From Candidatus Heimdallarchaeum endolithica (GTDB lineage Archaea; Asgardarchaeota; Heimdallarchaeia; Heimdallarchaeales; Heimdallarchaeaceae): DNA of 64,000 nucleotides. Positions 16,093-57,230 of this stretch are shown here, piece after piece; within the stretch, counting starts at the first letter, position 1, and each line of letters begins with the position of its first letter. The position numbers were made by a program, and so were the translations under genes. The notes under the pieces are model-generated. The model was given only the letters and a program-made list of their open reading frames with translations, was not told the DNA's origin and searched no databases. The stretch is taken from contig CP084167.1 of the NCBI GenBank assembly GCA_021513715.1, forward strand, positions 2,336,001 through 2,400,000, written 5' to 3'.

Positions 16093-16246
16093 AAAGAAAA
16101 AAAACTTTAAAAACAAAGGAAAAATAGAAGAAACGTAAAAGGAAAACAAAAACATAGCCGCGATAGCTTAGTCGGTAGAGCATTCGGCTGTTAATCTTAA
16201 GATTTGAATGCACTACGGGTGTAAAAAGAGCAGCAACCGAAAGGCC
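16093..16246 (+). repeat. Left arm of 154-bp inverted repeat (tRNA-Asn upstream region + 5' gene part)
   Basis: Reverse complement of 54418-54571; first 70 bp identical, 11 mismatches overall by manual alignment. Confidence 0.95.
16157..16246 (+). pseudogene. Truncated tRNA-Asn(GTT): 5' acceptor strand, D arm, anticodon arm with 42-nt intron, variable loop; T arm and 3' acceptor missing
   Basis: GCCGCGATAGCTTAGTCGGTAGAGCATTCGGCTGTTA-intron-ACCGAAAGGCC followed by non-tRNA sequence. Confidence 0.9.
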
Positions 16247-16674
16247 GAATTTCCTATTTTGTGTTTTAAAAATATTTAACACATAAACCAATTTTTAGGT
16301 CGGGAAATGCATAAGCAAATCTGTAAATTTTTTTATAAAAAATAAAAAATCACGACCAATATTAAGGGTGGAGTTGTTAGGAATGGTTTGCTAAAAATCT
16401 AGTATATTGCAAATTCAATTAAAATGGTTTAATAACTGTCAAAAGATCTATTTTTTTTTGAGATAATGAATGTAATTTAACTTACTGTTCTTGTTTATTT
16501 AACCCTTATTTTTTTCCAAACAATTTCTTCATTTTTAGGTATTGTTTTATTTTGTAAAAAGAATTCATCTATGTATTCACACATTCTACACTTTTTGTTA
16601 CAATATTTCTTGTCTTTAATTCTTGGATATAATTGTTTTTCATATTTTAGTCTTTCAACAAAGGATATAGTCTT

Positions 16675-17684
16675 TGTTTACTCAATAGACTTGGGTTACA
16701 CTTTTGGGTACTAGAGAAACATAGGGGTGATTCATAAATCTTTCTCCTGGGGTGAGGAAGTTAAGAGATTGGTGAGGACGACTAAAATTGTAGTAAGAGC
16801 GATAGTAGGAGAGGTCGGGGTTGCAGTATTTTAGACCTAATCTTTCCATCTCACGGATGATTGTCCCATGTAGTCTTTCTACTTTTCCACATGTTTCAGG
16901 GTGAAAAACTCTAGCTCTGATGTGCTTTATTCCTTCTGTTTGACACCAACGGGAGAAGGTACTTGTTCCTCCTCTAACGGAAGAGAAGAGTGCTCCATTG
17001 TCAGTAAGTATAGACTCGGGGTAACCGTACTCTTTTATTGCTTCCTCTAGCAAACTTATTATCTGCTCTTTTTTTGGTGCAAAAGGGTGGAATTCAGCTC
17101 CCAGACAGAATCGTGAGTGGTCGTCTATCAAGGTTATGAGGTGGAGATGTTGTCCCTGTTCTTCTACCCAGAATGGTCCTTTCACATCTATTTGCCAGAG
17201 TTCGTTAGGTTTTTGACGTTCAAAACTCTTGTATCGAGGTCTTTTCCTCTTTTTTCTATTAACCCATAAAGGAAGACCTAACTCTTTTATTACTTTCGTC
17301 ACTGTCGTCTGAGAGAGTGCTTTTCCTTCTCTCTTCAACAAATAAGCTATCTTCTCCACATTCATTCCTTGTTTTATTCTTAACTCCCTTATCCTCTCTT
17401 TTAACTCCTCATCTACTTTCCTGTGTATAGTTTTTGGTCTGGAAGATCTATCTTTCCACCATACTCCTTCAGGGTTCTCTCTGAACCTCTTCAACCACTT
17501 ATACACAAACTTCCTACTCACCATATACTTGTGAGCTACCTCTTTTATCTTCTCTCCTTCCAAAGCTTTTTTAACCACAATCTTTCTTAGTTTCTCCAGG
17601 TTACGTTCGTTTTTGTTCATAATATATCACTTACCCACGTAACCCACTTCTATTTATTTGTTACCAATGTGAGTTGAGTATACA
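16675..17684 (-). mobile_element. IS481-family insertion sequence, 1010 bp, 26-bp imperfect terminal IRs, 17-bp target-site duplication
   Basis: TGT...ACA ends; IRs TGTTTACTCAATAGACTTGGGTTACA / TGTATACTCAACTCACATTGGTAACA (19/26); ACAAAGGATATAGTCTT at 16658-16674 and 17685-17701; higher GC than flanks. Confidence 0.93.
16682..17620 (-). CDS. IS481-family DDE transposase (HTH + rve integrase core)
   Basis: VSRKFVYKWLKRF HTH, LWQIDVKG, IDDHSRF, LTDNGALF, HPETCGKVERLH, YNFSRPHQSL. Confidence 0.95.
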   Translation of the reverse strand: MNKNERNLEKLRKIVVKKALEGEKIKEVAHKYMVSRKFVYKWLKRFRENPEGVWWKDRSSRPKTIHRKVDEELKERIRELRIKQGMNVEKIAYLLKREGKALSQTTVTKVIKELGLPLWVNRKKRKRPRYKSFERQKPNELWQIDVKGPFWVEEQGQHLHLITLIDDHSRFCLGAEFHPFAPKKEQIISLLEEAIKEYGYPESILTDNGALFSSVRGGTSTFSRWCQTEGIKHIRARVFHPETCGKVERLHGTIIREMERLGLKYCNPDLSYYRSYYNFSRPHQSLNFLTPGERFMNHPYVSLVPKSVTQVY

Positions 17685-18514
17685 ACAAAGGATATAGTCT
17701 TAGTAATCCTTTTTAGTTCTATATCCTCCTCAGTAAGATCTAATGTTCTTCTTTTCTGTTTATCATTGTTGTTTAGGTACCACAGTTCAGGAATAATTTC
17801 GATATTAGGTTTCTTTATTCTAATGATTTCAGAGTAGATTAGCACTTGTCTTTTGTCTCTAGGCGATTCTTTTCCTGTTTTTAGTTCTATCACTCTTATT
17901 GCTGTTCGATCTACTGTCCAAGCTAAAATGTCTATTCGACCTGTTAAAAGAAATTTTTCTGATAATTCATACTCAATTTTGTATTCGGTTCCTATAACAA
18001 GAGAAATTAGTTTTCCTCTATTATTCTCTTCAACTAAAGTAGAACAAAACATAGCCAAAGTGCGTAAATTAAAATAAAGCTTATCGTCAAACTTTACTTC
18101 TTTTTCTCTTTCAATTATACAATCAAAGTCCTTCTCTCCATCAGGAAAGAAAAATCTTTCTGTCAACTCATATAAAGCGGTAAAAAAAGATTCTTTGACG
18201 GATAGTTTTTCGTGTATGTAAAAATGTTGTACTAAGTCGAAATTGCTTGATAAAACAGATTGTAGAAGTAGATGGTAAAAAGTTCATAGCTCCATAGATC
18301 TTGAAGAAGAAGCATACTCTCTCAATTTATTCATTTTAAGTAGAACTGCAAAATATGGTCTTATTGTACAAAAATCATCTTCAAGAACATCAGTAACGCT
18401 AATACTAACATGTTTTTGGAACATGATATTCACGCTAATCTTTAATCTTTTAATTAATTTATAAAAAAGAAAAAAACATAGTCAAAAGTAACACATCTTA
18501 TTTTTTTTATTATT

Positions 18515-19969
18515 ATGTTTATATATCGAAATGTTATTTTTGAATTTGAAATGGCTTCAAGAACACATATTCAAGAATATGAATCATGTATTGTTTTCCA
18601 GAAATTTATGATCGAAGAAAACATACTTGTTAATTTCTGTAAACATATCGATTTTGGCATAGATGGTGAGCTGGATATATTACAAGAAGAGCCAAGGGAT
18701 GATTTTTACGAAGAACGTAGAGCAGTAGATATAGATTTAAGGAAAAAGGCTTTTGTTCAACTCAAATCTAAAAGAGAAAAAAGTAGGGTAAATGAAGATG
18801 GAACTGTTTCATATAGCTTTAAAAAACGACATTTAAAACTATGGCAAAATTCGCCCATACCCGTTTTTGTTTTTTTGGTTTACCTTGATGACTCAAAAGA
18901 GATCTATTGGACATATGTTGATATTGACTTACAAATAGAAGAAGGGGAATCGGAATGCCAAAACCTTACTCTTGAAAAACTAGAAGGGGGATGTAGAAAT
19001 AAATTCAATAAGATAATTGAGGAGCATTATAAAAAAACAGGATACAAATATAATGTCTCAACAAAATTACCAATGTTTAGAGATTTTATTGAAAGGAGAA
19101 AGCAAGGTTTAGAACTAAGAAAAAGTTTGATTTTCAAGGAATTAAATCCAATAGAAGATAAAAAAGCTAAAATGTTAAGTCCTTTTCCTAAATCAGGATT
19201 AAGAAAAAAAATCTCATTCTCAGAATATGCCTTATCTATAGATGATTTCTATGAAAAAATAGATGACGATGAATACATTAATGAGTTTTTTAGCCGTAAA
19301 TCAAGGATAGAAAGCAATATTATTGAGAGTGTATATAAAGCAGAAGTAGCAAAGATAAAATATGATCTTGTAAATAATCACGAAACTTTTTTTGCTGATA
19401 GTTGGATTGAAATATTTGAAAATATAACAAAAATAACAGAGGAATATACAAGACCTATTTTGTTTATTAATAGTGAACTAAGAGATATTATTCGAGGGAT
19501 TCCTGCAGCAGATAGACCTAGTCTAGTAAATCAAGTTCTTCATAATTCAAAAGAAGATGCAATATCACATTCTCATTATGAAAACATAATAAATGGAAAA
19601 AATGTTTATTTCTATTTCTTTTATATTCCTAGACACTTAACTAAAAAGTTTCCTGTGTTAAACGATATTAAAATAATTATTTTAGATAGAGAAAAGGTAA
19701 AATATATTGTTAAAGAGCCATTAAGATTAGAATGGAGGACGATTACTAGGCCAGTTCAAGTTGATATTATCGATGGCGCAGCATATAAAGTTACAAAAAA
19801 AGAAGAAGAGTGGGATTGGTTTGACTTTACTTGTTATACTGTAGGAGAAATAAGAAATGAAGGACCAATAAAAATATACAAATTTTCCGAAGATGAGAAA
19901 AAGGAATTACAAGACTTTGAAGATAGACTAATAAAACTTACAAAATCAAGAAAAATTACCAAGGGATAA
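18515..19969 (+). CDS. DUF4365-like PD-(D/E)XK nuclease fused to a C-terminal domain with possible HK97 capsid-like fold (likely start 18551)
   Basis: DFGIDGELDI...FVQLKS...LKLWQNSPIPVFVFLV...IYW fits DUF4365; the C-terminal assignment is by eye only. Confidence 0.7.
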   Translation: MFIYRNVIFEFEMASRTHIQEYESCIVFQKFMIEENILVNFCKHIDFGIDGELDILQEEPRDDFYEERRAVDIDLRKKAFVQLKSKREKSRVNEDGTVSYSFKKRHLKLWQNSPIPVFVFLVYLDDSKEIYWTYVDIDLQIEEGESECQNLTLEKLEGGCRNKFNKIIEEHYKKTGYKYNVSTKLPMFRDFIERRKQGLELRKSLIFKELNPIEDKKAKMLSPFPKSGLRKKISFSEYALSIDDFYEKIDDDEYINEFFSRKSRIESNIIESVYKAEVAKIKYDLVNNHETFFADSWIEIFENITKITEEYTRPILFINSELRDIIRGIPAADRPSLVNQVLHNSKEDAISHSHYENIINGKNVYFYFFYIPRHLTKKFPVLNDIKIIILDREKVKYIVKEPLRLEWRTITRPVQVDIIDGAAYKVTKKEEEWDWFDFTCYTVGEIRNEGPIKIYKFSEDEKKELQDFEDRLIKLTKSRKITKG

Positions 19970-19990
19970 TCGCGTTTATTTTTTATTTAC

Positions 19991-20290: not shown

Positions 20291-20738
20291 ACCCTTAAAC
20301 TGTCTAAGAGCTAAAAAATATTCTTATACGCATAATGTATGCATATATACAAAGGTTTTATATATCGGTAGCCATATAATACTTATAGGTGGATAGTGAG
20401 CGACGGAAAAAAATGAAAACAACCTAAGGAGTGATGAAAAAAGAATGATGGGTCAAAGATATGAGAAGAAAAGAAGAAAAAAACGTATATACGCCTTCTT
20501 CTGTAGTCTGTTCCGCATATAAATATATAGGGGACAAAGAGTTAGGTGTTTTGTGGATAAGTATTCAACTAGAGGGTGTAAAGCCTGATTTTTATAGTTT
20601 TGTTAGTAGATCATTTATTGGAAAAAAGTTTCTTTTATTTTTTTCTGCCTTTATAAATTATTTTTATGATAATATTGTAAACAACAAAACAAGAGGAGGA
20701 AAGAGAAGGATTTCTTCACTTCAAAAAAGTGAAACCGT

Positions 20739-21923
20739 GTGGTGGAGTTTATGACTGTAAGTGAAAGGGGAAAGGATAAGTTTTTTTCAAATGTCTATTA
20801 TGATTTTAAAGGGGAAAAAAATCGACTCTCTACCGAAATAATTCCGTTTGAGTTTGAAGCAGTAATACGAGAGGAACATCTGATTACTGTTAAAGATATT
20901 AGAATAAAGGCAGGAATAAAATATCATCTGCATATTAAAAGTTTGGAGACAGATCAAAAATTACAAGGAGTAGACCTTTTAATTAGAAAACGTGGAGAGA
21001 AGATAGTTTTTACTTTGTCGCATCGAATGAAAAAACTGTTCAAAAAAGGAGAAAAAGTAAAGGTTAGTATCTTTTGTCCAACAGAGGAGTTTTACGGAAG
21101 AAAACAAAAAGAAGGAATAAGAGATGTATCCATCCACAACGATGAGATCTTGTGTATAGCTTTTATCTATCAAATGGGAGAAAATAAAGGACTAATCAGT
21201 CTCAATAGCGAAAATGAAGAGTATTTGTCAAAATTAGAAGGAATACAAGAGACTTTTCATATCTTGGATGATAGAATAATAAGGAGAGATGAGGAAGGAA
21301 ATGTCCCCTTTGAAGCTAAAAGTTACTCTAATTATGCAATAATAAGATACTACACGATAATGAACAGGTATGATTTCATAAAGAATCAAGAAAATCACTC
21401 TTCTGTTTATACTTATTTCGTAGGAGATGAAAAAATCCTTCCTACAGTAACATCCGTCAAAGCTTGTTTAGTGATAGTAATAAACAAGTCCTTGATTCCT
21501 ATATGTCTAGAAGAGAGAGTAAGAAAAGAAATAAACATGTTTCTGGACAAAAAAATGCCTTTATTTAAAATACAAGACCAACTTTATGAATTGAAAAGAG
21601 TAATTTTACAATATATTAGAGCGTATTATAGACCTATCATAGCAGAAGAGACGTACAACGAGTTCAACATTAAATCAATGATTTTTCATTTAAACCGCAA
21701 AACTTCTCCTGTATACAAAGCAATTATATCCCTCGTATCTTTTGATAACTACATCTCAGTAGAAAAACTGGTGAACTATGTAGAAGAGAAGTATAAAATA
21801 AAAGATAGACGTTACATCAGTGAATCGTTAACAGAACTGATAAATCTTGGAATTATAAAAAGAAAGGTTGAGGACGGAAAAGTAGGGGTAGGGGTTGTGA
21901 GATCATATGATGAAAAAAGATGA
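20739..21923 (+). CDS. Hypothetical element protein with C-terminal winged helix (likely start ATG 20751)
   Basis: 394-aa ORF; GGTGGAG precedes ATG 20751; ISVEKLVNYVEE...YISESLTELINLGIIKR wHTH-like end; overlaps the ParA gene. Confidence 0.75.
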   Translation: MVEFMTVSERGKDKFFSNVYYDFKGEKNRLSTEIIPFEFEAVIREEHLITVKDIRIKAGIKYHLHIKSLETDQKLQGVDLLIRKRGEKIVFTLSHRMKKLFKKGEKVKVSIFCPTEEFYGRKQKEGIRDVSIHNDEILCIAFIYQMGENKGLISLNSENEEYLSKLEGIQETFHILDDRIIRRDEEGNVPFEAKSYSNYAIIRYYTIMNRYDFIKNQENHSSVYTYFVGDEKILPTVTSVKACLVIVINKSLIPICLEERVRKEINMFLDKKMPLFKIQDQLYELKRVILQYIRAYYRPIIAEETYNEFNIKSMIFHLNRKTSPVYKAIISLVSFDNYISVEKLVNYVEEKYKIKDRRYISESLTELINLGIIKRKVEDGKVGVGVVRSYDEKR

Positions 21924-22707
21924 ACAAGGAAAAGTAGTGAGTTTTTTCAGTTTTTCAGGAGGAGTAGGTAAAACGACTTTGGTTGTTAACATTGCTAAAA
22001 TGTTAGCCGAACAAGGAAAGAAAATAATAGTGCTAGAACTAGAATTACTCTCACCTAAATACCAAACTATTTTTGGTTTTAATCCTGCGAAATCTATAGA
22101 TGAACTATATATGCAAAACTATAGAAACAATCTTGAACTAGAAACGGTTGATAGAATAATTAAGAAAAGTATAATTACAAACGATTATGGAGTAGATTTC
22201 ATTATCCCTACTGCTCCCACAACAATAGAAGATCTAATTAACAGAGATAGAGACTATAATCATAAAGATTTTGCAAACTTTATAAGAAATTTACTAGCTT
22301 ATCTGAGGAAGAAATACGAGCTAGTGTTGATAGACTCTCCAAGTATAACGAACACCGAAATAATGAGTGTTTTACTGCTATCAGATAAATTAGTTTATGT
22401 CTGTATTCCCCCTTTGGAAGATATATCTGAGGGAATAGAACAAATAAAAAAATTTCCAGAGAGTACATTCATCGATCCAATTGATGTGATAATAAACAAA
22501 GTACCAGTAGAAACAGAAAAAAAAAGACAAATATTGGAAAGAAAAATGAAAGAACGACTAAAGAAAGAAAAAATAAACAAAGTAAGAATAGTAGAATTAT
22601 CACTAAATTATATAAAAGAGAATGTAAAAGAAAGGAGAATATACATAGAAAAAGAAAAGGAAAAAAACATTTATCAAACACTGCTAAACTACAGTAAAGA
22701 ATTATAA
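21907..22707 (+). CDS. MinD/ParA-family ATPase with deviant Walker A
   Basis: VVSFFSFSGGVGKTTLVVNIAKMLAEQGKKI, YELVLIDSP, VIINKV. Confidence 0.9.
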   Translation: MMKKDEQGKVVSFFSFSGGVGKTTLVVNIAKMLAEQGKKIIVLELELLSPKYQTIFGFNPAKSIDELYMQNYRNNLELETVDRIIKKSIITNDYGVDFIIPTAPTTIEDLINRDRDYNHKDFANFIRNLLAYLRKKYELVLIDSPSITNTEIMSVLLLSDKLVYVCIPPLEDISEGIEQIKKFPESTFIDPIDVIINKVPVETEKKRQILERKMKERLKKEKINKVRIVELSLNYIKENVKERRIYIEKEKEKNIYQTLLNYSKEL

Positions 22708-22756
22708 TATCAAAATTAAAAGAAAAGAAAAATAAAGTCTATCCCTACCGCCAAAA

Positions 22757-22786
22757 CTATCACTATCATTATCACTATCATTTTCA
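22757..22786. repeat. Hexamer tandem repeat (C/T)TATCA x4 plus one degenerate copy
   Basis: CTATCA CTATCA TTATCA CTATCA TTTTCA, 50 bp after the ParA stop. Confidence 0.7.
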
Positions 22787-22860
22787 TTTGAACTAGCAAA
22801 AAAGAAACAAAACAAAACGAAAAGGAAAAAAAACAAAAGAATTGGAAATAAGGAAATTTA

Positions 22861-24243
22861 CTATTTTCTCTTATTTTTTAAAAGAAAGAGGAGATTTTTA
22901 ACCGAGAAAATAGAAACGAAGGATAAAGGAGTGAGAACGATTATCAAGTACATTATTTGGTTTTTGATTAAGGGATTGGTATGGTTATAAAATTCTTCAA
23001 GATTGGTTAAACCATCACCATCAAGGTCAAGATAAGAGTCATTAGTTAAAGGGTCAGAACCATAATGAACTTCCCAACCGTCAGGTAAAAGGTCTCCATC
23101 CGAATCAGGATTCCAGGGGTCAGTACCATAAAGATGATCTTCAAGATAATCTAGTAGCATGTCTTCGTCGAAATCGCTTCCACGAGGAAAAGGGTCAAAA
23201 GCTTTAGCTTTTCCATCGATAGGGTAAGGTTCAGAGCCATCGGTATCTGACCAATAGTTACCAATAGAATAGACGGGGTCAAACCAGGTGTTATTCGCTC
23301 CATCATCAAAAGCTTGAGAAAGATTATTACCTTTATTGTTCTTGAAAAAAACGTTACGTGAGATAAAGTTGTTAGAAGCAGCTTTGTGAACAAACAGTCC
23401 ATACTCACTGTTATTGAACAAAACATTAGAAGAAAGGTGATTGTTAGAACCACCTAAAAATATCCCACTTTTTCTGCTCTCGGAAATAACGTTATCGGTA
23501 ACGGAGTTGTTATCCCCACTTACGCTTATTCCTTTATAAAAAGTATAAGTAATAGTATTATTTGTTATGATGTTATTATGTCCTGAACCATAAATTCCAT
23601 GTGCTCCACTATACGATATGTAGTTATTAGTAATAATGTTAAAACAACTTTCAGTCATATCAATACTTTTTCCACTATTATGAGAAATATTATTACCACT
23701 AACCAAATTGTGAGAACCGTGTTGGATTCTTATTGCTCCCCGAGTATGAGTTATAAAATTGTTAATAACGACGTTATCAGAACTGTATAAACGTATTAAT
23801 TCGCGAGAATAAGTTCGATTGGTTCCACCAACAAGAGTGGAACCCTCAAGGTGAAGATGGGCGTTATCCCATGCTCCAATATCCCAAGGACTGTCAGTGT
23901 AAGTTAGAATGGTTGTATCATAGATCTCTAAAGAAGAATTGTCTATAGCATAAATACTTAGAGAACCCACTCTATCATGTTCAATAACAATAAAACAATT
24001 ACGAAGAATAAGAGAGCCTTCGTCCTTGATAAGAACTCTGTTGATAAGTTTAATAAACTCGTTTTCAACTACAGTAGGTTCAGTAATGTTCCAAATACCT
24101 TCCGGAGGAGGAAAGGTTCCTGAGCTAGATGCAGAAGAAGTAACTAGAGGACTAAAAGTAGGTGAAAAGAGCAGGAGAGAAGAAAAAATCACAAGTAAAA
24201 GCACGAACGAATTATTTTTCCTTTTTGTTAGAATAAAAAGCAT
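22861..24243 (-). CDS. Membrane-anchored right-handed beta-helix (NosD-like) protein with Ca-binding DxDGD repeats
   Basis: Signal-like N-terminus, N-x-I-x-x-N repeats, GNYWSD motif, DSDGDLLPDGWE / DLDGDGLTNLEE repeats, C-terminal TM. Confidence 0.88.
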   Translation of the reverse strand: MLFILTKRKNNSFVLLLVIFSSLLLFSPTFSPLVTSSASSSGTFPPPEGIWNITEPTVVENEFIKLINRVLIKDEGSLILRNCFIVIEHDRVGSLSIYAIDNSSLEIYDTTILTYTDSPWDIGAWDNAHLHLEGSTLVGGTNRTYSRELIRLYSSDNVVINNFITHTRGAIRIQHGSHNLVSGNNISHNSGKSIDMTESCFNIITNNYISYSGAHGIYGSGHNNIITNNTITYTFYKGISVSGDNNSVTDNVISESRKSGIFLGGSNNHLSSNVLFNNSEYGLFVHKAASNNFISRNVFFKNNKGNNLSQAFDDGANNTWFDPVYSIGNYWSDTDGSEPYPIDGKAKAFDPFPRGSDFDEDMLLDYLEDHLYGTDPWNPDSDGDLLPDGWEVHYGSDPLTNDSYLDLDGDGLTNLEEFYNHTNPLIKNQIMYLIIVLTPLSFVSIFSVKNLLFLLKNKRK

Positions 24244-37729: not shown

Positions 37730-37731
37730 AA

Positions 37732-46700: not shown

Positions 46701-49700
46701 AATAGAATTTTCTGAATTCACTTTTCCTGGATTTTGTCCTATCTTAGACTTTGTTCCTCATGCTGTTCCTTCAGGTTATTCTGTTATTCTCACTACTACG
46801 CTCGATTTCGCCAAAAGTTTGAACACTTCCTTAGTTCTACTCCTAAACAAAGAAAGTGGCATAACAATACAATCCTTACTTTGGGATGAGACTCCACTTC
46901 TTTACATCAATGAAGGAGTATTTAACGAAATTGACTCCGATTTGGAAAATGGTATGATTACTATACCTTTGAATAGTGAAGGGTTAACTGTCAACAGTCT
47001 CTTTTCTCCTAAAGAAAACAACCCTAATGAGTATGGTTTCATAGAAAACGACCCTGATTATAACTTTCATTTTTCATCTTCTGACCCTTATAGTATAAAA
47101 ACATCCTCTGTTAACCCTGATTCTGTTATTTTGAACAACAAAGGCATTCACAGAATAGTTATCCAATTAACCTTTCCTTCTCCTTATAATACAGATTTTG
47201 GAATATATTTGGAAAATGTAGATGATAGCGTGCGAACTGTTTTATCTCCCTCAGATAAAGCAATAGACTTTCATGCAGTAGCACAGAAGAACTTTATTCA
47301 ATTTGAAAACGATCTTCATCAACCTCAAACTCTTGCTCAATTAGAGAAAAACGAGAATACTTTATTTAAATCACGATATTTCAAAGATGACTATGGTCAA
47401 TACCATTCCTATAGAATTTATAGTCTTGGCTTTTCTGATGAATACACTTTAGATAAAGGAAAGAAATGGAAAATATATGATGGTGATACTGATGATTCTA
47501 ACGATGTTATCTATGAAAGTACAACCCACTATAATTGGAAACATGTAATAGGAAAGATGAATTTTGCAATTGTTATAGATGAAGGAACTCCACAAGTTTT
47601 GCAATTACCTTTTAATTTTCTAGTAGGTTATATGGTCTTTTGTGATTGGCTAGATACAAATGGAGATGGATTAGAAGACACATGTGCTCCTTATATAGGT
47701 CTAGCAGACCCCCTGGATGCTAGTTCTACTTACGATGATGTAAAAAAAGGTGTAGTTTATAATACAGAGGAAGAAAAGAAGATAAGTTATGATGTTACTG
47801 ATGAACAACAAGCAGAACTCAAGAATCTTACTGTACACCAATCGTTGGTATCTTCTCTTTCAACTACAGTAATTACAAAAACAGAAGAAGAAATACCCTT
47901 ATCCTACACTTCTGACGAAATAGCTGCTATTCAAAACAATGGATTAACTCTTGATCGTTATCTTCATTCTTTAATAGAAAATGACTATTTGACCTACTCT
48001 AAAGATATTGCAAGAGTAAAAATAACTATTAGTTCTTCAAATAATAAAGCAATAGACCTTGCTTATGATTATGATAAAGAAGTATTGTTCACCCACAGTA
48101 TTGATAATGCTACAGGAGAAGAAGAAAAAATAGTCTATGATTTCAGATATGACTGTTTTTCTGTCCTCACTCCTGATGCTTTTGCTAACGATAACTACAG
48201 AGTAGATTTTTATACTTTTAATAATAAACTAAGTCTCTATAATACAGATTTGTATAAACTTAAAGAGACTCCTAATTCTTACGGATTGTTTGATGACCCA
48301 CAAACTCTTTCACCTATGGTAGTATTAGAAAATTATAACTATGAAATAAAAGAAACTGTTAATAGTCTTGATTCAAAAGATGAAGAAATTTTAAACAATA
48401 CTCCAACAACAATTGTAGACGCTTTTGTTCAAGGATTAACTCTTTCTCAACTAAGTGTGGAAATGTATGATGCAGAAATAGAGATGGATTATTATAGTTT
48501 AGATCTCTTCTACTCTGTTTTCTTTAATGAATATTTGACTCTACAACAGTTCTTCTCTTCTCAAGAAACATTAAATAACAACCAGAAACATCAGTATTAT
48601 CCCACTGGGACAATCCAATTTGCTATATGGATTAGTTCAATACTTAACTCCTATATAATCCACCAATCAGACAAATTATTCGACGAATACCAAAACCGTA
48701 CTTCCCGATATGATTCAGAGAAAAAAGCTATAGCTGCTATGTCCTTTTTGTTAGACCTTATTATACCTTATCGCGGATTCAAAACCTATGGAGCGGAACC
48801 AGAACCAGAAGAGACTCATCACCCACGTTTCTCTAGTTATGTTGATTTCAAATATAGTCTAGTTATGTTTTGGGGATTAATCTTAGGTAATAGTGCAGGA
48901 TGTGGAATACCTAAAAATTCTATCCCTATGTTTCGAGATAGTGAGAGAACTGGAAAACTTTTGATGATTGACGAATTATGGGATAAAGCTATTAAAAACT
49001 GGAACTTGGCAGATAAAAGTAGAATAGATGATCCTAGCGAATATTTACCCTATACTGACCAAGCTGTAGTAGACAAAATACTGTTTGACGCTAGAGTAAG
49101 AGGAGATGAAGCTATGATCGACTGGATAACAAATGAAGATTATAGTGCTGAGGCTTATTACATGCAACCCTATGGAGTAGATTATGCGATTTATTACTGG
49201 TTGAAGGCTTTTACTATTCAACAAGGATATGACCCTTATGCTATCAAAGTTTACACCATTGAAGAGATGAATAGTCAAGAGAGAGAAGATTTTGACGAAA
49301 ATTATTTTGTTATAGGCGTTCCTGTTTCCACAATCGAAGACCGATATTTAGAATATAACTGGTTTGTAAGTCTAGATAAAGAAACACGTGTACCCACTTC
49401 TGCTACATCACAACTAATAGACTTTATCCCTCTTGTATTCGGTCAAAGTTCTAATCCACATGTAAGAACAATGATGAAAATAATTAAAAGATTAGGAAAT
49501 GTAGCAAAAGGAGAAAATTTCGGTTATAACACTTTTAGCATGAGCGAATTTAGCTTAATTGTTACTTTGGAATTTTTAGTGAATCTTATAGATATAGGCG
49601 CTTTACTTATTGATATCAGAGATGCCTATATAGGAGCTACTCCTTTTATACGCAAAATGTCGCTCATGCAAATACCAATGGATATACTAGATCTGTTTAC

Positions 49701-52700
49701 CCCAGGACCTTTTTCTCTCGTAGGAAATACAATGAATAATATTTTCAAATCTATAGTAGGTGACATTCCTACAGGAGTAAAAGGATTAACAAAAACAGCT
49801 AATTTGCTAGATATTATACAAAATTCTGCACAAGGAGAGTGGAAAAGCATTGCTCGCGCAGCAGGAAAATCAGAACTAATGATTTGGATAGTTGAAGCAG
49901 CACAAGTGACTTATCGTTTCTCTACACTAGCTAACCAGTTTTACCAATGGTTCTTCTTCCTCCCGCAAAAGATTTTCATGAGCAGTTTGCAAATAACCTT
50001 AAACTCATTCATGATCTTTGCCTCTAAAATGATTTATACCATCAGAAGAATGGATATAGAAGAAGCTACACTGTTAAACATTAAAGCGCAAGAATACTTC
50101 TACCAAGGACTAGATGATACTGCTAAAATGACAAGAGCTATATTAAGCCATCCAAAAATGCTATCCAGATTTGGGACTGAAGGACTTATAGAACGAGCAA
50201 ATATAGTAGCCAAATATTACATGAACATTATAATAAAGAAAGTAATGGAGTTGGAAGCAACATCAAAAGCAATACTAGAATCGGTTGAAAAGTCACGCTT
50301 CTATGTTATGATGGCCTTAAGATATGCTACACATATGTACATGAACACCCCAGGAGGAGTAGGTATACACTTCTCCCCCAATTTAATTGATAATGATAAA
50401 GAAACTGAAGGAAGATATTTTTCCACCGTGGATAACACTACAATTCGTCATGACATTAGTAACTCTTTGGATATATACCGATTTAACTATATAGCCGATA
50501 GTAAAACTAGACTCAACTTTGAGAAAGCTAAGTTTACAATAAGTGATTTAGAAGCTGCCAAAATAAAACTAGCCATATCTTTTTCCTCGCTTTCAGCAAT
50601 ACATTCGACACCTGAAACATTTCAAGCATATAAGGAAACGTTAGAATATATCGATGAAAGGTTGAAACAAATAACAAATGAAGAAGGTGAAAATCTAGAG
50701 TATACACCTATATGGTGGATTTTACATGTACCGGTTAATGCAGATATGAACAAGTACTCACTTAGACCTATATTTGATGAAAATCCGGCAGTTTCTTTTG
50801 TTCTCAGAATATTTATGTTAGAGAAAGCTCTAAATGAAAACTTGGAAAAGTCAATGGCTGAAGGAGAAATAAATTTTGGAGATTATGATGTTCGAACAGA
50901 ATATGAAAAAGAAATTCGTTCTAGTCTGGATAAAATATTAAGTTCTGCGCCTGTAGGTTTAAGCCATAGAGGCTTTGAACTAGTGGAGGACATAGATAGA
51001 AAATACGTGTGGAGAGCAAGAATTTTAGAACTATTTGGACAAACTCAAGGTTCACTGTGTAAACTAAAAACAAGAGATGAATTTGGTGATTGGGTAAGGT
51101 ATGGACGAACGGGAACAGATTTATTAGGTCTATTTGGATATGAAGAGTATAAACAATGTAAAAAAACAATAAGACGTATTCTATCTGCTCGTAGCCAAGA
51201 TGCTGTCTCTTTTATCTATTACTTTATGTCTTTAGGATTATTTGGATTTCGGTTCTATTCTGATGATGAAAGTGTGATGGCTCAATTAAGAAAAGATTTT
51301 CCAGACCATGATTTTGATACAGAACCGAGTATTAGTTTTACTAAGTTAGCAACTAAATATGGTGTGTCTGATTTTCAAGGATTAATGCCATCGAAAGAAT
51401 TTATAGTGCAAGCTCTTACACATTTAGGCTTAAAAGGTTTGGCGATTGATACAAAGATTACAAATTCTCTTTACTCTGTTACAGATTCAATGGGAATATT
51501 CAATAAAGCTATTGCAAAGAATATTTTGACCTCTGTAGCAGCAGAAAATGCATATATTGGACATGGGAGTGTAATTTACTATAAGGATAAAACGCAAGGA
51601 GAAATTATAAAAGATTTTGATAAAAACTCAGTATATTTTGCAAGGTATGTAGACGGAAAAGATACGAAACCTCCTATGGCATTTATTCCTGGTGACGCAA
51701 TACTGTTATATGACACAAACGAAGACCGTTATCTGTTTTTACGGAATAATTATCCAGAGCGGTTTTTTTATGAAGGTTTTACATTCCAAAAAACAGAATT
51801 CCTTGTATATTGGTTTCGAATAAACGAGGTCACAGGTAAAGGAGAGGTAGTTTATGATATATTGGATCACTATTGTAAAGATGAAGAAGGAAAACTAAAA
51901 GAAGGAATAACAATTGTAGGAACGGAAGATGTTCTTACAGATATGAATAAGTTTTATCCCAAAAGAAATAAAATAAGAAGCAGTCAACCCATAATATCAA
52001 TTGAAGTAAAACAAAATGGTGAAAACACAGATTACGTTGTCTCAATGGATGAAAAACTACCCTTGTTTAAGTTTGTAGGAGGAGATTACGCTACTCCAAC
52101 AGAAAAAGATATCAACTTTGCAAGTTTCCTTTATCCAAGCAAATATTCAGGAAATATTGTTTTTGGTTTATTAGATGATAACTTAGAGTTTATAGATGAA
52201 AAAGGCTTATGGCCTGTTTATATGGGGTTAAGTCCCTCAAGATACACATATAATGTAAAAGGAATAAATCTAGAAAACGTTAATTCAGCAAAAGAGTTAT
52301 TAGATAAATTAGATAAAAAAGAAAACTTACCAGAGGTAGAAGTAGCTACAAATACAAATAAATTGATAACTCGTCCCGCAACAGTTCAGGAAGTAAACCA
52401 ACAAAGAGTATACGAATTAATTAGATGGTACACAACGAATCAAGTTTATACTTATTATGTATCTACTTTAAAAAAAGAAAATAAAGCATTTTTATGTAGA
52501 GCCTATCTAGATGATTGGAACGCGGTTAAGTCATTAGGTGAAATCATAGAAATAATTGAAGATTCAGAAGGATATCTATATCAAAAATATGGATACAAGA
52601 ATAAACAAGAATATCTAAACTTTAGAATAAACATGATTCAAACAATAATAAATGAACAAGAACAATTCTATAAATACAAATTTAAAGACGATAACCTTTC

Positions 52701-54357
52701 TAATGAAGATAAGTTGATAGAATTTCTAAAAGAACAAAAAGAATTCTTTGAAAGATTAAGTAAACAAGCAGCTAAAATAGAAGCTTTTCAAGAACCATTC
52801 TTTTCAAACTTGAGATTAGATATATATGAAGAAAGCCTAAGTCAATCAATACTAGACATTAATTATGAAACAATGTTAACATTATTGTTATCAAATAGAT
52901 TTAATTCTTATAACAAAATACGATTGTTTGAAGGAGATGTACCTTTCAGCAGAAACCAAATGAAATTCGCGTTCGATAATATAATACTACAATTAGGAAC
53001 AAAAACTTTCATTGAAGAAGCAAAGAAAATGGGAATATTAGATCTCAATGAGAACACAGATGAAATAATAGATATGATGAATAAAGTATTAATAAAAGTG
53101 CATCGCAATACTCCGAAGATTAGGAAGAATATTGCAAAAAAGGTGGAAATTTATGGTCCAAAAACAGCAGAAAAACAAATACTGTTTTATCATAAAGAAA
53201 GAATGCAAAGAATAAACTATCAAAAAGAGCAACTAAAAATAGAAAGAGCAGAAGAAAGACTTTGGAAACTATACGGTGAAAAAACAGAAAATAAGAAAAA
53301 AGACCTAACAGTAGAACAACTATACGAGATAGAAGAAGAATTCAACAATCTGAATGGAAAAAGCATAGTAGAAAAAACAGGAACAGGAATGGTGGTTGTC
53401 GAAAATGGTGATATATACACGGTTAAAATATTTAATGTGATAAGTGATGTAATGTACAAAAAAATATCAATAGTTCAAAGAGGATATGCTCATGATATGA
53501 TAGAAAAGGTAGTAGGGTTAGCAGAGCACATATCATACAACGAAGGTCGAAAGCGCACATATATTAATTGCGCAATGATTAACATTCTCTATCTGATACA
53601 AGCTTTAACATGCGGAAATATAAGAATTGATAATTATAAAAATTTAGAAGAATTGAAAAAATTAGAAGAATTCAAAAAAATACTGATAAATTATCTGGGC
53701 AAAGAAAGAACGGAAAGAATACTGAAATTATTCAAAGAACCAATGATAGGCGTAAAAACTTCACCAAGAGTTGACGAAAAATTAAAAACAGGTTTTTTAC
53801 AAACCTTTGGGTCAGTAGATTTTCATCAACCAAGTAAAACTTTACCAGACATATATGGAAAATATGCATTAAACGGAATGATGAAAAAAAATATACTGAT
53901 GCTACTAGAAATTATATATGGAATATATTACACAGGAGTGAAATATACGAAAGATCTGAATGAAAACCTGACAGATACAATAATAATGAAATTCAAAAAA
54001 ACAATTGAGGATGGAAAAGAAATATTACGTTTAAAAGATGTAAAATTAAGAAAAGAAGAACTAGAAGGAGAATTCATATATACAATTAAAGAACTGAATA
54101 CTGGACTAGACGAAAAAACAAAAACAATATTGTTAAAACTCGCAAAAAAACCATATTCATCAGTGTTCGGACCAGAATTCATGAGCAAAAATGAATTACA
54201 AAAAATGGTGGACAAGATAATAGACGAATATGAAAAAATAATTCAACTGAAAATAAGGAATTTTAACGATATAATAACTGAAGAGGACATGAAGGTAGTG
54301 TTAATAGCAGAAGAATTCAAAATAGAAAACCTATTAAAAATATTTAAAACAAAATAA
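37732..54357 (+). CDS. Giant 5541-aa protein: N-terminal TM, long acidic Tyr/Ser-rich beta-type region, hydrophobic helical segment, Lys/Glu-rich C-terminal region
   Basis: Uninterrupted 16.6-kb ORF; LVITGVALFISVIVILQSFSIAL TM; DLDEDGEEDF and DTNGDGLEDT Ca-loop-like motifs. Confidence 0.9.
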   Translation: MQKIKSKMNTFLGKLNKRSLVITGVALFISVIVILQSFSIALYPQSSDDDSYTFFYSDFSDKEEWKGVYRLSWGSIIVDSNFNAMSKKIDLYWYGMQQLFLEVKGIDSLKLDSSSAIQVIDADTSRILYELRGSQLSSFNVSVDLSAYVYEDTSALYINIIGSIKIIDYIRIFTPKLYYHNFLNDGKTFPNAYHEFNQLYIDYLAYTEEVTYETPVIKVPEGNNVNLTFAFNLVPSLTSNYSMFAHIYADIYGLGGFGEVEQRIELGYSYTNMSFGADYVSLIDKEITLLGNYYVRFYLNFDCFETNEEDIQIKLIAFFIQPHNNVEAQSEYVDPALYIRKSPNAYISEQVVEGRVFNALTVDRQGYIATYKISHMDTIFYDKLDPSTIEENYTIGNPDTLVYDFDSSKNLRLNSSGYLYSSESIGSDFSVSTSFNLNSLASNRIFAGIGIYGTHSYEFAVGNMTLYEETYVDEETTTVKVKEVYQAYLHVYKDNLLIRSYALNQTFGEGQVISLSLSSKFGYKAYSVQINYEEIVISLPEIIAIGGKPGIFAKIPQPSPDNFVSFYYLSASGITEYSPRRLLIYSKTQQYVTVVLKATRINPLSFSSEKVVIDEKKLSQNKEGILYFSYIPKPFEYIHLEVYCTNPDEELTSSFSILAMKFSGIHEYNTIIPSYDYYDISDSVYFEKRNLISEDLSDNFIASYDAIVEERYSLLEIGAEAQDSLPDTQIDIYTRKLNSGLPFTFQGTVYWTEHESGSFFSHVLYLDLSPGNYEIRLERPLIFTSKLNISYLLLRPLTSYANAVTDSVGFTNPLSWEKDFTTDKIDAFNGIDQFIEESYYSLVHPSCYMKDDGNGNYEQYTDWTPSTDDTQIWSVEDNLASFVGGVKLDIPDVSTGSEGYPYLRFVARTYSNYTIDLKLTLTYSDGSTNEYYYSVSQEPKVYFFNFDYTDSPKILSGIEFFTNYILYNDKDESVIVSDIHLYRFTNIEVKLEDQSYLDDSGFDTSDYSGDNFSVAPFLSDYYGLLDIDLNYIPSNERVKVWTDNDAEGLKQYYYNNNNHYLLPSTVTVPINDWRVNKGASVGIYSTPLTSLNLNFMISMDIENRKTFNEDMTIELFEYKFKPNTDAYATSLPYSYYKLKFYLYGSIEMQNEEGEMEGGYLYYRLFAYDGVEETELTPTYDMLSDNTDFLQAISTNTLDFPNMLRITDNYEKGITHLIYNTNEESELRAVFPVNFEEAYTISIHFGQDQRIEREYADADSKNDVFDTPFFVGVSSFDTFLELYEGSGEKATLLFADVTIPSSMFPSLFIQTSEAINSTTELSWETDYSINWTPEPTFYVNSYEPSRNDETGYKPLAHHINLFENRYLLLEDLKTIFEEIDVTPYLVNENYGDFLYLPKYYSATLSTFQDVYVTNYDLSFEGTGNFQLIGNTILSSYTFDYNDEKNKNWKNEFIYKTVSSLKFISTYEKDSLPKTYLSCLDYLSYEYYAKNKKREYSFTDGFTNYEDWTTVDFSLFERVKEPSLRSSPLGLVIDENSIDFTNENMDSIYDYFDPTDELEDLFSFSGKTMYYLPSYYMKGGDDQPGHSLWDRVLAGEAFQGFNPSSSPYYQNQQYLYNNWMYDLQSQIIQKEAKNIDEDSELNIYNFYDEFPEDGLDFSCMLPDYLRFKPVYYSASLPKDFIWSFDINVDSWSLGNLAEDYVKFFDKEEGRYSFYITIPIILPSHGNKPYYQDLSPDPNVLRLFIYYDSGTEYHDSEIEKGYVKLDPHYSIYLGRSIIGVWKASESVSLHFEIAVEEKEIDESYAIYQEGVNGGPQITAYYDYNLQMWINNDNMYWDLLKLPMWMLTITYPYKDKDYDAIENTYQYDLMYNQLFNTLPSENGYINPQYFQAFNTYYKGLYGDKEPTGFQIDGRLFFDTGTLTEHTYHWLQYQRSLVSDKYYSLSLSEYGIDPSDPSLYDLDYHYYSRDNYAGMVRSDMADVRFENPRYVRGEYDWFNIANEIYENDFALYNIDYALDNSLYKIPQRTIGFGVNYPFVGISDVSITPLNSIQTTDLDEDGEEDFSVINGEVATDGENVIVKPGSAITSLDLSNDLDIAIKYKDIISSCRGYYDKTLLDYSFEVGLQDLHNPNLKYYFYMKNRYPYNQYFEYKNSEQIDSIDHFGGDDSLPSLDSGITQPLMGTYVGIKGYAQSSSDYSLITDTLSSTFKRIFQPKNSILYDYLNIKYDVTTKILTFILWSEKYGNKQSYEISYNLSETGELGTNDLTNYTLYFKTENAYLFIDKIYTRTFMPVEDTNSERYYRGAGKLGDYYLYSPVNHGLELQNQVKLSYEDYNLNSFPSTEFYFIPTSESSFSLDLFGIKSDDTLENFLKLEINGKECKLSLDSGDSWNSLNNTEIENMFDVVNSYTWNSLSIHRGSEEDQLIINLNNQDYPFVFYIDTEEYYKYKFTLTHKRSRTVIDNLSFISLYEEFENDRELLNDEWEKDISRGFYRQIQVTKVQSQLIIYGAAIIEGETEVAVTFNDDPSTTVSQVWKMSSVGMKMDYFSYVIPSSVDMSSPVKISLSVSNMAIINWLSIEPMKDVESILYLSNNNKYINQVYSPMEYLSGSELVDTSTYEQPHALEVGGTTQVKFKYNYSPEDLDVAPNVVFEGFIKGQGKISFSFQVKLPDKLTSLNVNFIGLVGVGESTEQYIATISREEKTITYSAILSSAEEQEQWKYFYISLYQLARHIPKELLVDNYSNGSKEVDLLDENYPVSGIISDAKMVVNYAGAYVEKIIQLEKGASQNLYISDLKSTITNIHSAYPYENALSSLSEEIKWKKYDVPFDGYIPLDNVYLDDFDGSSYYIYDVVVYVDASTYSKVHLTVETEGSFVLSNRYSIILQKMGFSNEVVSTVFSAQQGYTPLYLHVVFPKTAFNQNIRIQYISNGGVAISAENNREGDAISEWLISTPFYSEKNEDTVDYLNFISQVTPMEGERFEKRVVDSEGFTHTETIEFSEFTFPGFCPILDFVPHAVPSGYSVILTTTLDFAKSLNTSLVLLLNKESGITIQSLLWDETPLLYINEGVFNEIDSDLENGMITIPLNSEGLTVNSLFSPKENNPNEYGFIENDPDYNFHFSSSDPYSIKTSSVNPDSVILNNKGIHRIVIQLTFPSPYNTDFGIYLENVDDSVRTVLSPSDKAIDFHAVAQKNFIQFENDLHQPQTLAQLEKNENTLFKSRYFKDDYGQYHSYRIYSLGFSDEYTLDKGKKWKIYDGDTDDSNDVIYESTTHYNWKHVIGKMNFAIVIDEGTPQVLQLPFNFLVGYMVFCDWLDTNGDGLEDTCAPYIGLADPLDASSTYDDVKKGVVYNTEEEKKISYDVTDEQQAELKNLTVHQSLVSSLSTTVITKTEEEIPLSYTSDEIAAIQNNGLTLDRYLHSLIENDYLTYSKDIARVKITISSSNNKAIDLAYDYDKEVLFTHSIDNATGEEEKIVYDFRYDCFSVLTPDAFANDNYRVDFYTFNNKLSLYNTDLYKLKETPNSYGLFDDPQTLSPMVVLENYNYEIKETVNSLDSKDEEILNNTPTTIVDAFVQGLTLSQLSVEMYDAEIEMDYYSLDLFYSVFFNEYLTLQQFFSSQETLNNNQKHQYYPTGTIQFAIWISSILNSYIIHQSDKLFDEYQNRTSRYDSEKKAIAAMSFLLDLIIPYRGFKTYGAEPEPEETHHPRFSSYVDFKYSLVMFWGLILGNSAGCGIPKNSIPMFRDSERTGKLLMIDELWDKAIKNWNLADKSRIDDPSEYLPYTDQAVVDKILFDARVRGDEAMIDWITNEDYSAEAYYMQPYGVDYAIYYWLKAFTIQQGYDPYAIKVYTIEEMNSQEREDFDENYFVIGVPVSTIEDRYLEYNWFVSLDKETRVPTSATSQLIDFIPLVFGQSSNPHVRTMMKIIKRLGNVAKGENFGYNTFSMSEFSLIVTLEFLVNLIDIGALLIDIRDAYIGATPFIRKMSLMQIPMDILDLFTPGPFSLVGNTMNNIFKSIVGDIPTGVKGLTKTANLLDIIQNSAQGEWKSIARAAGKSELMIWIVEAAQVTYRFSTLANQFYQWFFFLPQKIFMSSLQITLNSFMIFASKMIYTIRRMDIEEATLLNIKAQEYFYQGLDDTAKMTRAILSHPKMLSRFGTEGLIERANIVAKYYMNIIIKKVMELEATSKAILESVEKSRFYVMMALRYATHMYMNTPGGVGIHFSPNLIDNDKETEGRYFSTVDNTTIRHDISNSLDIYRFNYIADSKTRLNFEKAKFTISDLEAAKIKLAISFSSLSAIHSTPETFQAYKETLEYIDERLKQITNEEGENLEYTPIWWILHVPVNADMNKYSLRPIFDENPAVSFVLRIFMLEKALNENLEKSMAEGEINFGDYDVRTEYEKEIRSSLDKILSSAPVGLSHRGFELVEDIDRKYVWRARILELFGQTQGSLCKLKTRDEFGDWVRYGRTGTDLLGLFGYEEYKQCKKTIRRILSARSQDAVSFIYYFMSLGLFGFRFYSDDESVMAQLRKDFPDHDFDTEPSISFTKLATKYGVSDFQGLMPSKEFIVQALTHLGLKGLAIDTKITNSLYSVTDSMGIFNKAIAKNILTSVAAENAYIGHGSVIYYKDKTQGEIIKDFDKNSVYFARYVDGKDTKPPMAFIPGDAILLYDTNEDRYLFLRNNYPERFFYEGFTFQKTEFLVYWFRINEVTGKGEVVYDILDHYCKDEEGKLKEGITIVGTEDVLTDMNKFYPKRNKIRSSQPIISIEVKQNGENTDYVVSMDEKLPLFKFVGGDYATPTEKDINFASFLYPSKYSGNIVFGLLDDNLEFIDEKGLWPVYMGLSPSRYTYNVKGINLENVNSAKELLDKLDKKENLPEVEVATNTNKLITRPATVQEVNQQRVYELIRWYTTNQVYTYYVSTLKKENKAFLCRAYLDDWNAVKSLGEIIEIIEDSEGYLYQKYGYKNKQEYLNFRINMIQTIINEQEQFYKYKFKDDNLSNEDKLIEFLKEQKEFFERLSKQAAKIEAFQEPFFSNLRLDIYEESLSQSILDINYETMLTLLLSNRFNSYNKIRLFEGDVPFSRNQMKFAFDNIILQLGTKTFIEEAKKMGILDLNENTDEIIDMMNKVLIKVHRNTPKIRKNIAKKVEIYGPKTAEKQILFYHKERMQRINYQKEQLKIERAEERLWKLYGEKTENKKKDLTVEQLYEIEEEFNNLNGKSIVEKTGTGMVVVENGDIYTVKIFNVISDVMYKKISIVQRGYAHDMIEKVVGLAEHISYNEGRKRTYINCAMINILYLIQALTCGNIRIDNYKNLEELKKLEEFKKILINYLGKERTERILKLFKEPMIGVKTSPRVDEKLKTGFLQTFGSVDFHQPSKTLPDIYGKYALNGMMKKNILMLLEIIYGIYYTGVKYTKDLNENLTDTIIMKFKKTIEDGKEILRLKDVKLRKEELEGEFIYTIKELNTGLDEKTKTILLKLAKKPYSSVFGPEFMSKNELQKMVDKIIDEYEKIIQLKIRNFNDIITEEDMKVVLIAEEFKIENLLKIFKTK

Positions 54358-54389
54358 CAAAAGTAAATGCCACAATAATTAGAAAAACC

Positions 54390-54507
54390 TGGCGCCGCGC
54401 AAAGGACTTGAACCTTTGGTCTTTCGGTTGCTGCTCTTTTTACACCTTTCGTGCATTCTTTTTTTCTGATTAACAGCCGAATGCTCTACCGACTAAGCTA
54501 GCGCGGC
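54390..54507 (-). tRNA. tRNA-Asn(GTT), intact, 42-nt intron at 37/38 (54429-54470), encoded CCA
   Basis: Cloverleaf folded by hand: GCCGCGC/GCGCGGC acceptor, TTCGG-CTGTTA^A-CCGAA anticodon arm, AAAGG-TTCAAGT-CCTTT T arm, G73-CCA. Confidence 0.96.
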
Positions 54508-54571
54508 TATGTTTTTGTTTTCCTTTTACGTTTCTTCTATTTTTCCTTTGTTTTTAAAGTTTTTTTTCTTT
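54418..54571 (-). repeat. Right arm of 154-bp inverted repeat
   Basis: Reverse complement matches 16093-16246. Confidence 0.95.
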
Positions 54572-57210: not shown

Positions 57211-57230
57211 TTAAAATTTGTTTAATTTTT

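Follow-up and report, generated by a model that had tools for sequence, protein, structure and literature searches.

How does an archaeal mobile element come to be framed by two inverted copies of a tRNA gene? Integration by tyrosine recombinases at tRNA genes leaves direct repeats, as the SSV- and pNOB8-type integrases of archaea illustrate, and the region from the T arm to the 3' end of the tRNA is the classic attachment (att) zone. The locus considered here lies in a stretch of 64,000 nucleotides, hereafter the window, from Candidatus Heimdallarchaeum endolithica (contig CP084167.1, positions 2,336,001 to 2,400,000). In it a 38-kb block with two tandem giant genes stands between inverted arms that contain tRNA-Asn sequence. 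The block is almost certainly the published Aloposon2 of H. endolithica (Wu et al., 2022). Its insertion truncated the resident tRNA-Asn gene, and a complete, inverted tRNA-Asn gene of another allele came with it. The arms are most likely a one-off recombination scar rather than an integration mechanism. To the account as a whole, in which the element is Aloposon2, a stump of the resident gene stands opposite a foreign tRNA gene, the arms are a scar and not recombination sites, and the block was imported from another lineage, we give an even chance of being right.

Coordinates are those of the window unless the H. endolithica genome that holds it (G000; a single contig of 3,326,783 bp) or the genome of the sister species Ca. 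Heimdallarchaeum aukensis (G001; CP084166.1, 3,081,793 bp) is named. The H. endolithica genome has a GC content of about 31%, and its tRNAs with introns are numerous. A repeat search of the window found one long inverted pair, 16072-16249 and 54415-54592, so that both borders of the 38-kb segment carry inverted repeats; the same search found no direct repeat of 40 nt or more at these borders. BLAST lengthens the pair to 16059-16249 and 54608-54415 (87.6% identity, E 7e-66), and a genome-wide search for the arm sequence returned these two copies and no others. The original prediction, made from the sequence of the window, described 154-bp arms that are reverse complements of each other. The inverted repeat is real, but it is not perfect: 16093-16246 and 54418-54571 differ by 11 mismatches (about 93% identity), and the longest exact run is 70 bp (16093-16162). 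This run comprises 64 bp upstream of the tRNA and 6 nt of the tRNA itself, which confirms the predicted identity of the 64 upstream bp. Both tRNA copies point into the element, again as described.

The two copies are not, however, two tRNA-Asn genes, as had been supposed. The right copy alone is a tRNA gene by Rfam and ARAGORN; its 42-nt intron sits at the canonical position and the transcript folds as a cloverleaf. The left arm holds a promoter and the first ~52 tRNA positions, and breaks off at 16249 within the T stem. The T arm and the 3' acceptor strand are absent from this stump, it cannot fold as a cloverleaf, and it has no Rfam match even at E 10. ARAGORN, run in intron mode on the whole genome, finds the right copy as the sole tRNA-Asn gene of H. 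endolithica. A genome-wide search for the 3' part of the tRNA, allowing up to 5 mismatches, also matches the right copy alone, which bears out the earlier observation that the tRNA 3' end has no direct repeat.

The state of the locus before the insertion can be read from three empty sites. In H. aukensis, a CobW-like gene whose product is 99% identical in amino acid sequence to that of the left flank stands directly upstream of a single tRNA-Asn, and the CobW-like gene, this one forward tRNA-Asn and the XPD-like helicase gene follow one another within about 500 bp. Positions 3-1694 of the H. aukensis empty-site sequence (L004) align to 14557-16247, and its positions 1724-3226 align to 54612-56114 at 99% identity. 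A metagenome contig (L045) is 98-100% identical in DNA to the left flank and thus represents a near-identical strain; in it the tRNA is directly followed by the helicase flank. A second metagenome contig (L044), from a third population, has a single forward tRNA-Asn with the pair C7:G66. These sites show 16250-54609 to be an insertion. Each element-free relative has a single tRNA-Asn, and none has the convergent pair that the original prediction had named as its refutation. The insertion cost the resident gene ~25 nt, namely the T arm and the 3' acceptor strand, and the right joint directly follows the last base of the tRNA, as the right flank restarts at the next base. The view that the segment is an insertion with tRNA replacement, in which the resident was truncated and a complete copy of a different allele arrived with the insert, thus holds. 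A foreign base composition of the insert was considered and rejected, as its borders show no GC step. In L044 (Ga0190359_1084991), ~725 bp 3' of the tRNA-Asn and before the helicase flank are unrelated DNA with an apparent small open reading frame (ORF); this would be a further use of the tRNA-Asn site.

The arms belong to two alleles of tRNA-Asn. A7 and the 5' half of the intron are common to the left arm and the empty-site genes of H. aukensis and L045. In the right arm, C7 pairs with G66, the T stem is a different one and two patches of the intron are replaced; this arm is the allele of another lineage, has its own promoter, and now supplies all tRNA-Asn. The original prediction took the identical upstream DNA as a sign of recent recombination or gene conversion between the arms. 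This does not hold, because the 71 nt upstream of the tRNA are equally identical in both arms, H. aukensis and the metagenomic L045, and the identity is therefore one of conservation. The upstream region is about 80% conserved in other genera. One stretch of 15 nt in the 3' half of the intron is common to the two arms only, compared with three other lineages; it points to a brief exchange of sequence from one arm to the other, or to a stump that was present in the donor beforehand. Metagenome contigs contain no exact match to a 37-mer of the right-arm allele, a search for this allele in genome contigs returned H. aukensis alone, and viral contigs returned none. A pattern drawn at genus level retrieved two contigs only, both with the empty site. 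A likeness by eye had suggested L044 as the source of the right arm's flank; BLAST gave this no support.

What is the element itself? Aloposons, in the main text of Wu et al. (2022, Nat Microbiol, PMC8813620), have two tandem giant genes named Otus and Ephialtes, a tRNA site downstream of the giants, and an upstream gene block that includes a MinD/ParA-like ATPase. The same text describes two Heimdallarchaeum genomes, both circular, whose sizes are 3.32 and 3.08 Mbp and whose average nucleotide identity is 88%, and treats Aloposon2 of H. endolithica and Aloposon3 of H. aukensis as one conserved element that changed its tRNA site. The block agrees with the published aloposons in its tandem giants, downstream tRNA, ParA/MinD-like ATPase and host genus. 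Its tandem genes encode proteins of 4225 and 5541 aa, within the published range of 3,000-6,000 aa. The tRNA-Asn lies 32 nt past the stop codon of giant gene 2 and turns its 3' end to that gene; in the H. aukensis copy, tRNA-Gly(TCC) takes the equivalent place in the same arrangement. ORFs at 20461-20754 and 20739-21923 and the DUF4365 gene (18515-19969) precede the ATPase gene. The sister species carries a counterpart at another tRNA. The element and its change of tRNA site are therefore already published. The main text of that paper makes no mention of an inverted repeat, of tRNA-Asn or of AsnGTT, and the truncated resident tRNA-Asn, the inverted replacement gene, the element's direct repeat, its chimeric ends and the tRNA-Gly remnant do not figure in it. 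Relative to that main text the border anatomy is new: the element's own direct repeat, ends and core of different lineage, the tRNA-Gly remnant, and the ordinary direct repeats of two other aloposons.

The element has an att-like direct repeat of its own, which bears directly on the role of the arms. The original prediction found no direct repeat of the tRNA 3' end near the left boundary, and none exists there; it missed a different repeat at the borders (16253-16282 and 54330-54350). The parts of this repeat are a 6-nt word, an indel of 9 nt and an AT-rich word of 15 nt that has one mismatch, and it is unrelated to the tRNA sequence. The composite motif occurs in the 3.33 Mb of the genome, on both strands, at the two border places only. 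A 21-mer of the repeat (up to 2 mismatches) is unique in H. endolithica and absent from H. aukensis. No empty site with this att was found in H. aukensis, and 30 relatives did not rise above the control level. Since the repeat lies inside the arms, the tRNA arms lie outside the aloposon that it bounds.

Two other aloposons of the same genome have ordinary direct repeats. Aloposon B (G000 2397998-2437480) starts at about window position 61998 and is absent from H. aukensis. It is bounded by a 48-bp imperfect direct repeat (window 61950-61997 and G000 2437481-2437528) in the 5' flank of a tRNA. Its order is tRNA (61776-61893, reverse strand), direct repeat and Cas4-like cassette (62065-63059), with the giant genes at G000 2409593-2437404; H. 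aukensis has a single copy of the repeat (G001 2206436-2206483). Aloposon D (G000 2207497-2245385), immediately 3' of the 16S rRNA gene, is flanked by direct repeats of 95 bp. Its location is the HeimV2 site in the main text of PMC8813620. The aloposon D region (G000 2204662-2245520; L041, L042) adjoins the only 16S rRNA gene. A third partial copy of its repeat lies 2.7 kb further on, and H. aukensis has two copies around a different insert of 6.5 kb. On this sequence pattern the site looks like a hot spot of tandem integration. The check proposed earlier, whether other tandem-giant-gene elements have inverted tRNA ends, comes out negative in this genome, as only the element at tRNA-Asn has inverted arms. 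These ordinary repeats, together with the element's own repeat inside the arms, speak against the arms as recombination sites.

A cassette of ~1.25 kb, with one or two Cas4/Dna2-like PD-(D/E)XK proteins, stands at the left end of every aloposon and in the remnant described below. Its four copies in the genome are at 16404-18669, 62065-63059, G000 2102496-2103727 and G000 2241054-2242015, and it may be part of the mobility machinery. The left-end spacer of the element, which precedes the cassette, resembles the left end of aloposon B by eye only. An insertion sequence (IS) of the IS481 type, present in about 25 near-identical copies in the genome, interrupts the cassette, with an overlap of about 14 bp at the break that looks like a target duplication. 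The only rve protein of the element belongs to this multicopy IS. An inversion mediated by the IS was considered and is unlikely, as the IS splits a cassette that is contiguous in the other copies. A further idea, that the PD-(D/E)XK ORF 17654-18166 duplicates the N-terminal nuclease domain of the helicase, was rejected (BLASTP E 0.68). The giant proteins have no Pfam domain.

Where did the core of the element come from? A core of 36 kb is 93-94% identical to G001 2019936-2056540, which lies beside tRNA-Gly(TCC) and between it and tRNA-Gly(GCC); within the core, giant gene 1 has 94% DNA identity to the H. aukensis sequence from G001 2027294. The H. endolithica genome retains a remnant at the corresponding tRNA-Gly site (G000 2102264-2103915). 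It comprises tRNA-Gly(TCC), ~130 bp of the 3' end of giant gene 2, the nuclease cassette and tRNA-Gly(GCC). The breakpoint of the remnant in giant gene 2 coincides with window position 54327 to within 1-2 nt. After this position the window copy turns from aukensis-like to a divergent but homologous tail, and the right direct-repeat copy starts two nt further on (Table 1). Informative sites in the two cassettes are reciprocal. The window cassette is of the divergent type at 16643-17869 and aukensis-like from about 17926 onward, while the remnant cassette is aukensis-like in its left part and divergent in its last ~100 bp. Two exchanges would account for this pattern, with an aukensis-like aloposon at tRNA-Gly and a divergent aloposon scaffold at tRNA-Asn as partners. 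The crossover in the cassette would be homologous; that at the right att border cannot be, since on one of its sides the remnant lacks homology. A single inversion and a simple circle excision were also tried as models for the move of the core; neither reproduces both loci, and two crossovers are needed. The border repeat, the mixed ancestry and the remnant together point to a recombinational swap of two aloposon scaffolds, not a hop, behind the published transposition from tRNA to tRNA.

In H. aukensis, tRNA-Gly(GCC) and tRNA-Gly(TCC) are on the same strand, and their 3' parts with ~20 nt of trailer form a 55-bp direct repeat of 76% identity (G001 2019480-2019533 and 2056649-2056698; L016, L017), which is either an att site or paralogy. 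Apart from this match, a search at the left end of the H. aukensis aloposon for a matching direct repeat found none.

The flanks carry a further trace of exchange. Background identity between the two species is 82-92%, with islands of 94-99%. The right flank at 54610-55010 is 97-100% identical to H. aukensis and 90-98% identical to L045, which suggests that an aukensis-like donor supplied the helicase flank along with the insert. The stretches 14546-16249 and 54612-57914 are islands with 96-99% identity to H. aukensis, against a background of 82-88%, and comparable islands (95-98%) surround the tRNA-Gly site. These islands suggest recent gene flow between the two species around aloposon loci.

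The history that we favour has three steps. First, in a different Heimdallarchaeum lineage, an aloposon would have used its normal reaction, which forms direct repeats, to insert ~39 nt downstream of tRNA-Asn. Second, a block of this aloposon, the neighbouring tRNA-Asn and probably the helicase flank would have recombined into the present strain, with one joint inside the resident tRNA-Asn, in a one-off illegitimate or homology-anchored event. That event would have been tolerated only because the block carried a working tRNA-Asn. Third, the 36-kb core would later have been exchanged with an H. aukensis-like aloposon at tRNA-Gly, through one crossover in the shared nuclease cassette and another at the right att border. 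As the arms are inverted, recombination between them could flip the element but not delete it.

Several points weigh against this history. No single standard reaction explains an inverted tRNA flush with the helicase flank, and the history requires at least one illegitimate joint. That joint lies within the very gene that was replaced; this is a coincidence if the joint was random, and may point to a targeted mechanism. The 15-nt intron patch needs either an extra conversion step or a donor that already had the stump. No ORF of the element matches a recombinase or integrase family in Pfam or PHROGs, with several proteins left unassigned, and no donor genome was found with the right-arm allele or with the att sequence of the element. 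The joint import of the helicase flank is deduced from only 400 bp of conspecific right flank.

A joint so placed leads to the question whether replacement of a tRNA gene is the regular route of these elements, with the tRNA as cargo and a nuclease or recombinase of the element that cuts the resident gene between its T arm and its 3' end. The joining of the element would then destroy the resident gene and leave the host dependent on the imported copy. The ~25 nt that were lost are exactly the T arm and the 3' acceptor strand, and the right joint directly abuts the tRNA 3' end. The left end of the insert lies 3 nt outside the left direct repeat, where a single cut at att would place it. The element also has genes for several nucleases of the PD-(D/E)XK type, and the right-arm allele is foreign to the species. 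However, aloposons B and D and the H. aukensis copy have no truncated or inverted tRNA, and the att-like repeat bears no relation to tRNA sequence. The tRNA-Gly(TCC) stayed behind when the core moved, so that a tRNA is not obligatory cargo, and the case is a single instance. We consider this route unlikely. One variant supposes that an aberrantly excised aloposon captured a neighbouring tRNA-Asn, like a specialised transducing phage. The insert ends 3 nt from one att and ~260 bp past the other, and takes the tRNA and its promoter with it. It differs from specialised transduction in that it landed inside the homologous host gene in inverted orientation, and no free or circular form is known.

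The likeness to integrative elements that target tRNA genes is likewise partial. As in those elements, the insertion is at a tRNA locus, the zone from T arm to 3' end is hit, and a working tRNA is kept. Here, however, the 3' part of the tRNA has no direct repeat, and no integrase can be recognised. Those elements rebuild the tRNA with a 3' segment borne on att, whereas here a whole inverted gene with its own promoter replaces the resident. An aloposon insertion that replaces a single-copy host tRNA by a foreign inverted allele would make the host depend on DNA linked to the element. We put forward such a lock-in or addiction strategy, undescribed for elements at tRNA sites, as a doubtful suggestion. 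If it were true, the arms would serve to prevent loss of the element by recombination and permit only flipping.

A second alternative, in our judgement decidedly improbable, places the whole event at the locus itself. An aloposon would first have integrated in the normal way downstream of the lineage's own tRNA-Asn. The 3' part of the tRNA together with the element would then have been inverted, with the promoter and tRNA positions 1-52 duplicated in inverted orientation through staggered breaks or a template switch in replication, and the arms would have diverged since. The order of flank, copy, inverted segment, inverted copy and flank is the topology of an inversion with staggered breaks, the right joint directly abuts the tRNA 3' end, and giant gene 2 is oriented to the tRNA 3' end as in H. 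aukensis. The age of the event argues the other way. An empty site in a strain that is 98-100% identical at the left flank makes the insertion recent, yet between the arms there are 11 differences in 154 positions, grouped in patches, besides those in the T stem. The right arm's 3' flank is also unlike the resident 3' flank. A template-switch copy of that flank was rejected by comparison with the helicase flank (p 0.25-0.94). An event of this kind in a donor lineage could still hold.

Might the 38 kb instead be actively invertible? Host recombination or an integrase of relaxed specificity would act on the ~190-bp arms, and both isomers would coexist. The arms are inverted, match exactly over 70 bp and are about 93% identical across 154 bp, the 15-nt intron patch common to the arms only suggests a past exchange, and either isomer keeps one complete tRNA-Asn. 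There is also precedent in Thermococcus, where the pTN3 integrase, of relaxed specificity, is associated with inversions, including some between tRNA genes and short repeats (Cossu et al., 2017; PMC5495485). The locus shares with the Thermococcales cases a rearrangement at tRNA genes that is associated with a mobile element, and the exchange suggested at the right border of the element, between two inverted loci, would amount to an att-by-att inversion of the same kind. It differs from them in that no integrase is identified, one arm is truncated, and the rearrangement is known from sequence alone. The coherence of the alleles counts against flipping. C7 goes with G66 in one arm and all resident-type sites are found in the other, whereas frequent flipping with crossovers along the arms would scramble them. 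No invertase or integrase domain is recognised among the element proteins by Pfam or PHROGs. We judge an active switch still less probable than an event in place.

An assembly artefact, with the segment between the arms misplaced or misoriented, is very improbable: repeats do stand at both borders and the genome is rich in repeats and IS copies, but its de novo assembly drew on Nanopore reads, with Illumina reads for polishing, the two arms are short, differ in sequence and lack symmetry, the right arm, with its pair C7:G66, is coherent as a tRNA, and the tRNA-Gly remnant shows independently that the core left the tRNA-Gly site. A split tRNA gene of the Nanoarchaeum or Caldivirga type, with the left arm as its 5' half and a 3' half from elsewhere joined to it in trans, is scarcely credible: the left arm keeps its promoter, exon 1 and an intact-looking intron, but a complete tRNA-Asn is already present, and a genome-wide search for a T arm with the matching acceptor strand found the complete gene and a tRNA-Ser only.

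Aloposons belong to the small number of mobile elements that are known from the archaea nearest to eukaryotes. The locus offers the first base-level border anatomy for one of them, with an att-like repeat that overlaps the 3' end of giant gene 2, ends and core of mixed ancestry, and a reciprocal remnant. It also illustrates cleanly, in a natural setting, how one event can knock out an essential tRNA gene present in a single copy and put a foreign allele in its place, and this has a bearing on the tolerance of tRNA loci for mobile DNA. Should the arrangement be only a scar, its value is descriptive. The features are listed in Table 1.

Table 1. Features of the tRNA-Asn locus and of the aloposon inserted in it (window coordinates).
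Feature	Position	Strand	Evidence or remark
CobW/HypB/UreG-like GTPase gene, left flank	14664..15992	+	weak Pfam cobW match
Left arm, upstream/promoter part	16059..16156	+	last 71 nt identical in right arm, H. aukensis and L045
Left arm, dead stump of resident tRNA-Asn	16157..16249	+	exon 1, 42-nt intron, 13 nt of exon 2
Left-end spacer of element	16250..16403	+	no counterpart in H. aukensis or at the remnant site
Left direct-repeat copy (att-like)	16253..16282	+	starts 3 nt after tRNA stump
Cas4-like PD-(D/E)XK nuclease cassette, left end	16404..18669	-	Pfam PDDEXK_1; interrupted by IS
IS481-like insertion sequence	16675..17684	-	rve transposase 16682-17620; Pfam rve and HTH_32; later arrival
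DUF4365 (restriction-endonuclease-like) protein	18515..19969	+	Pfam DUF4365, E 6e-12
394-aa protein, then ParA/MinD-like ATPase (21907-22707)	20739..22707	+	Pfam AAA_31/CbiA/ParA; PHROG ParA-like
Beta-helix/NosD-like protein	22861..24243	-	Pfam Beta_helix, NosD
Giant gene 1, 4225 aa, Otus-like	25052..37729	+	ORF list
Giant gene 2, 5541 aa, Ephialtes-like	37732..54357	+	ORF list; last 10 codons (from 54328) of divergent type
Right direct-repeat copy	54330..54350	+	two nt after 54327; overlaps last codons of giant gene 2
Right arm, complete tRNA-Asn(GTT), 42-nt intron	54390..54507	-	Rfam 59 bits, ARAGORN
Right arm, upstream/promoter part	54508..54608	-	64 nt same as left arm, then similarity fades
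Right flank	54610..57210	+	begins at the base following the tRNA 3' end in empty sites
XPD/Rad3-like helicase gene	54817..57210	+	Pfam DEAD_2/HBB/Helicase_C_2; 98% aa identical in H. aukensis

Two further rearrangements distinguish the genomes. A ~260-kb inversion separates G000 about 2.021-2.279 Mb from G001 about 1.900-2.133 Mb, and the tRNA-Gly site lies inside it. At the edge of the high-identity helicase block, a stretch of 1.3 kb (57973-59266, with a glycosyltransferase gene at 58320-59267) is inverted relative to G001 2203674-2204970, at 82% identity.

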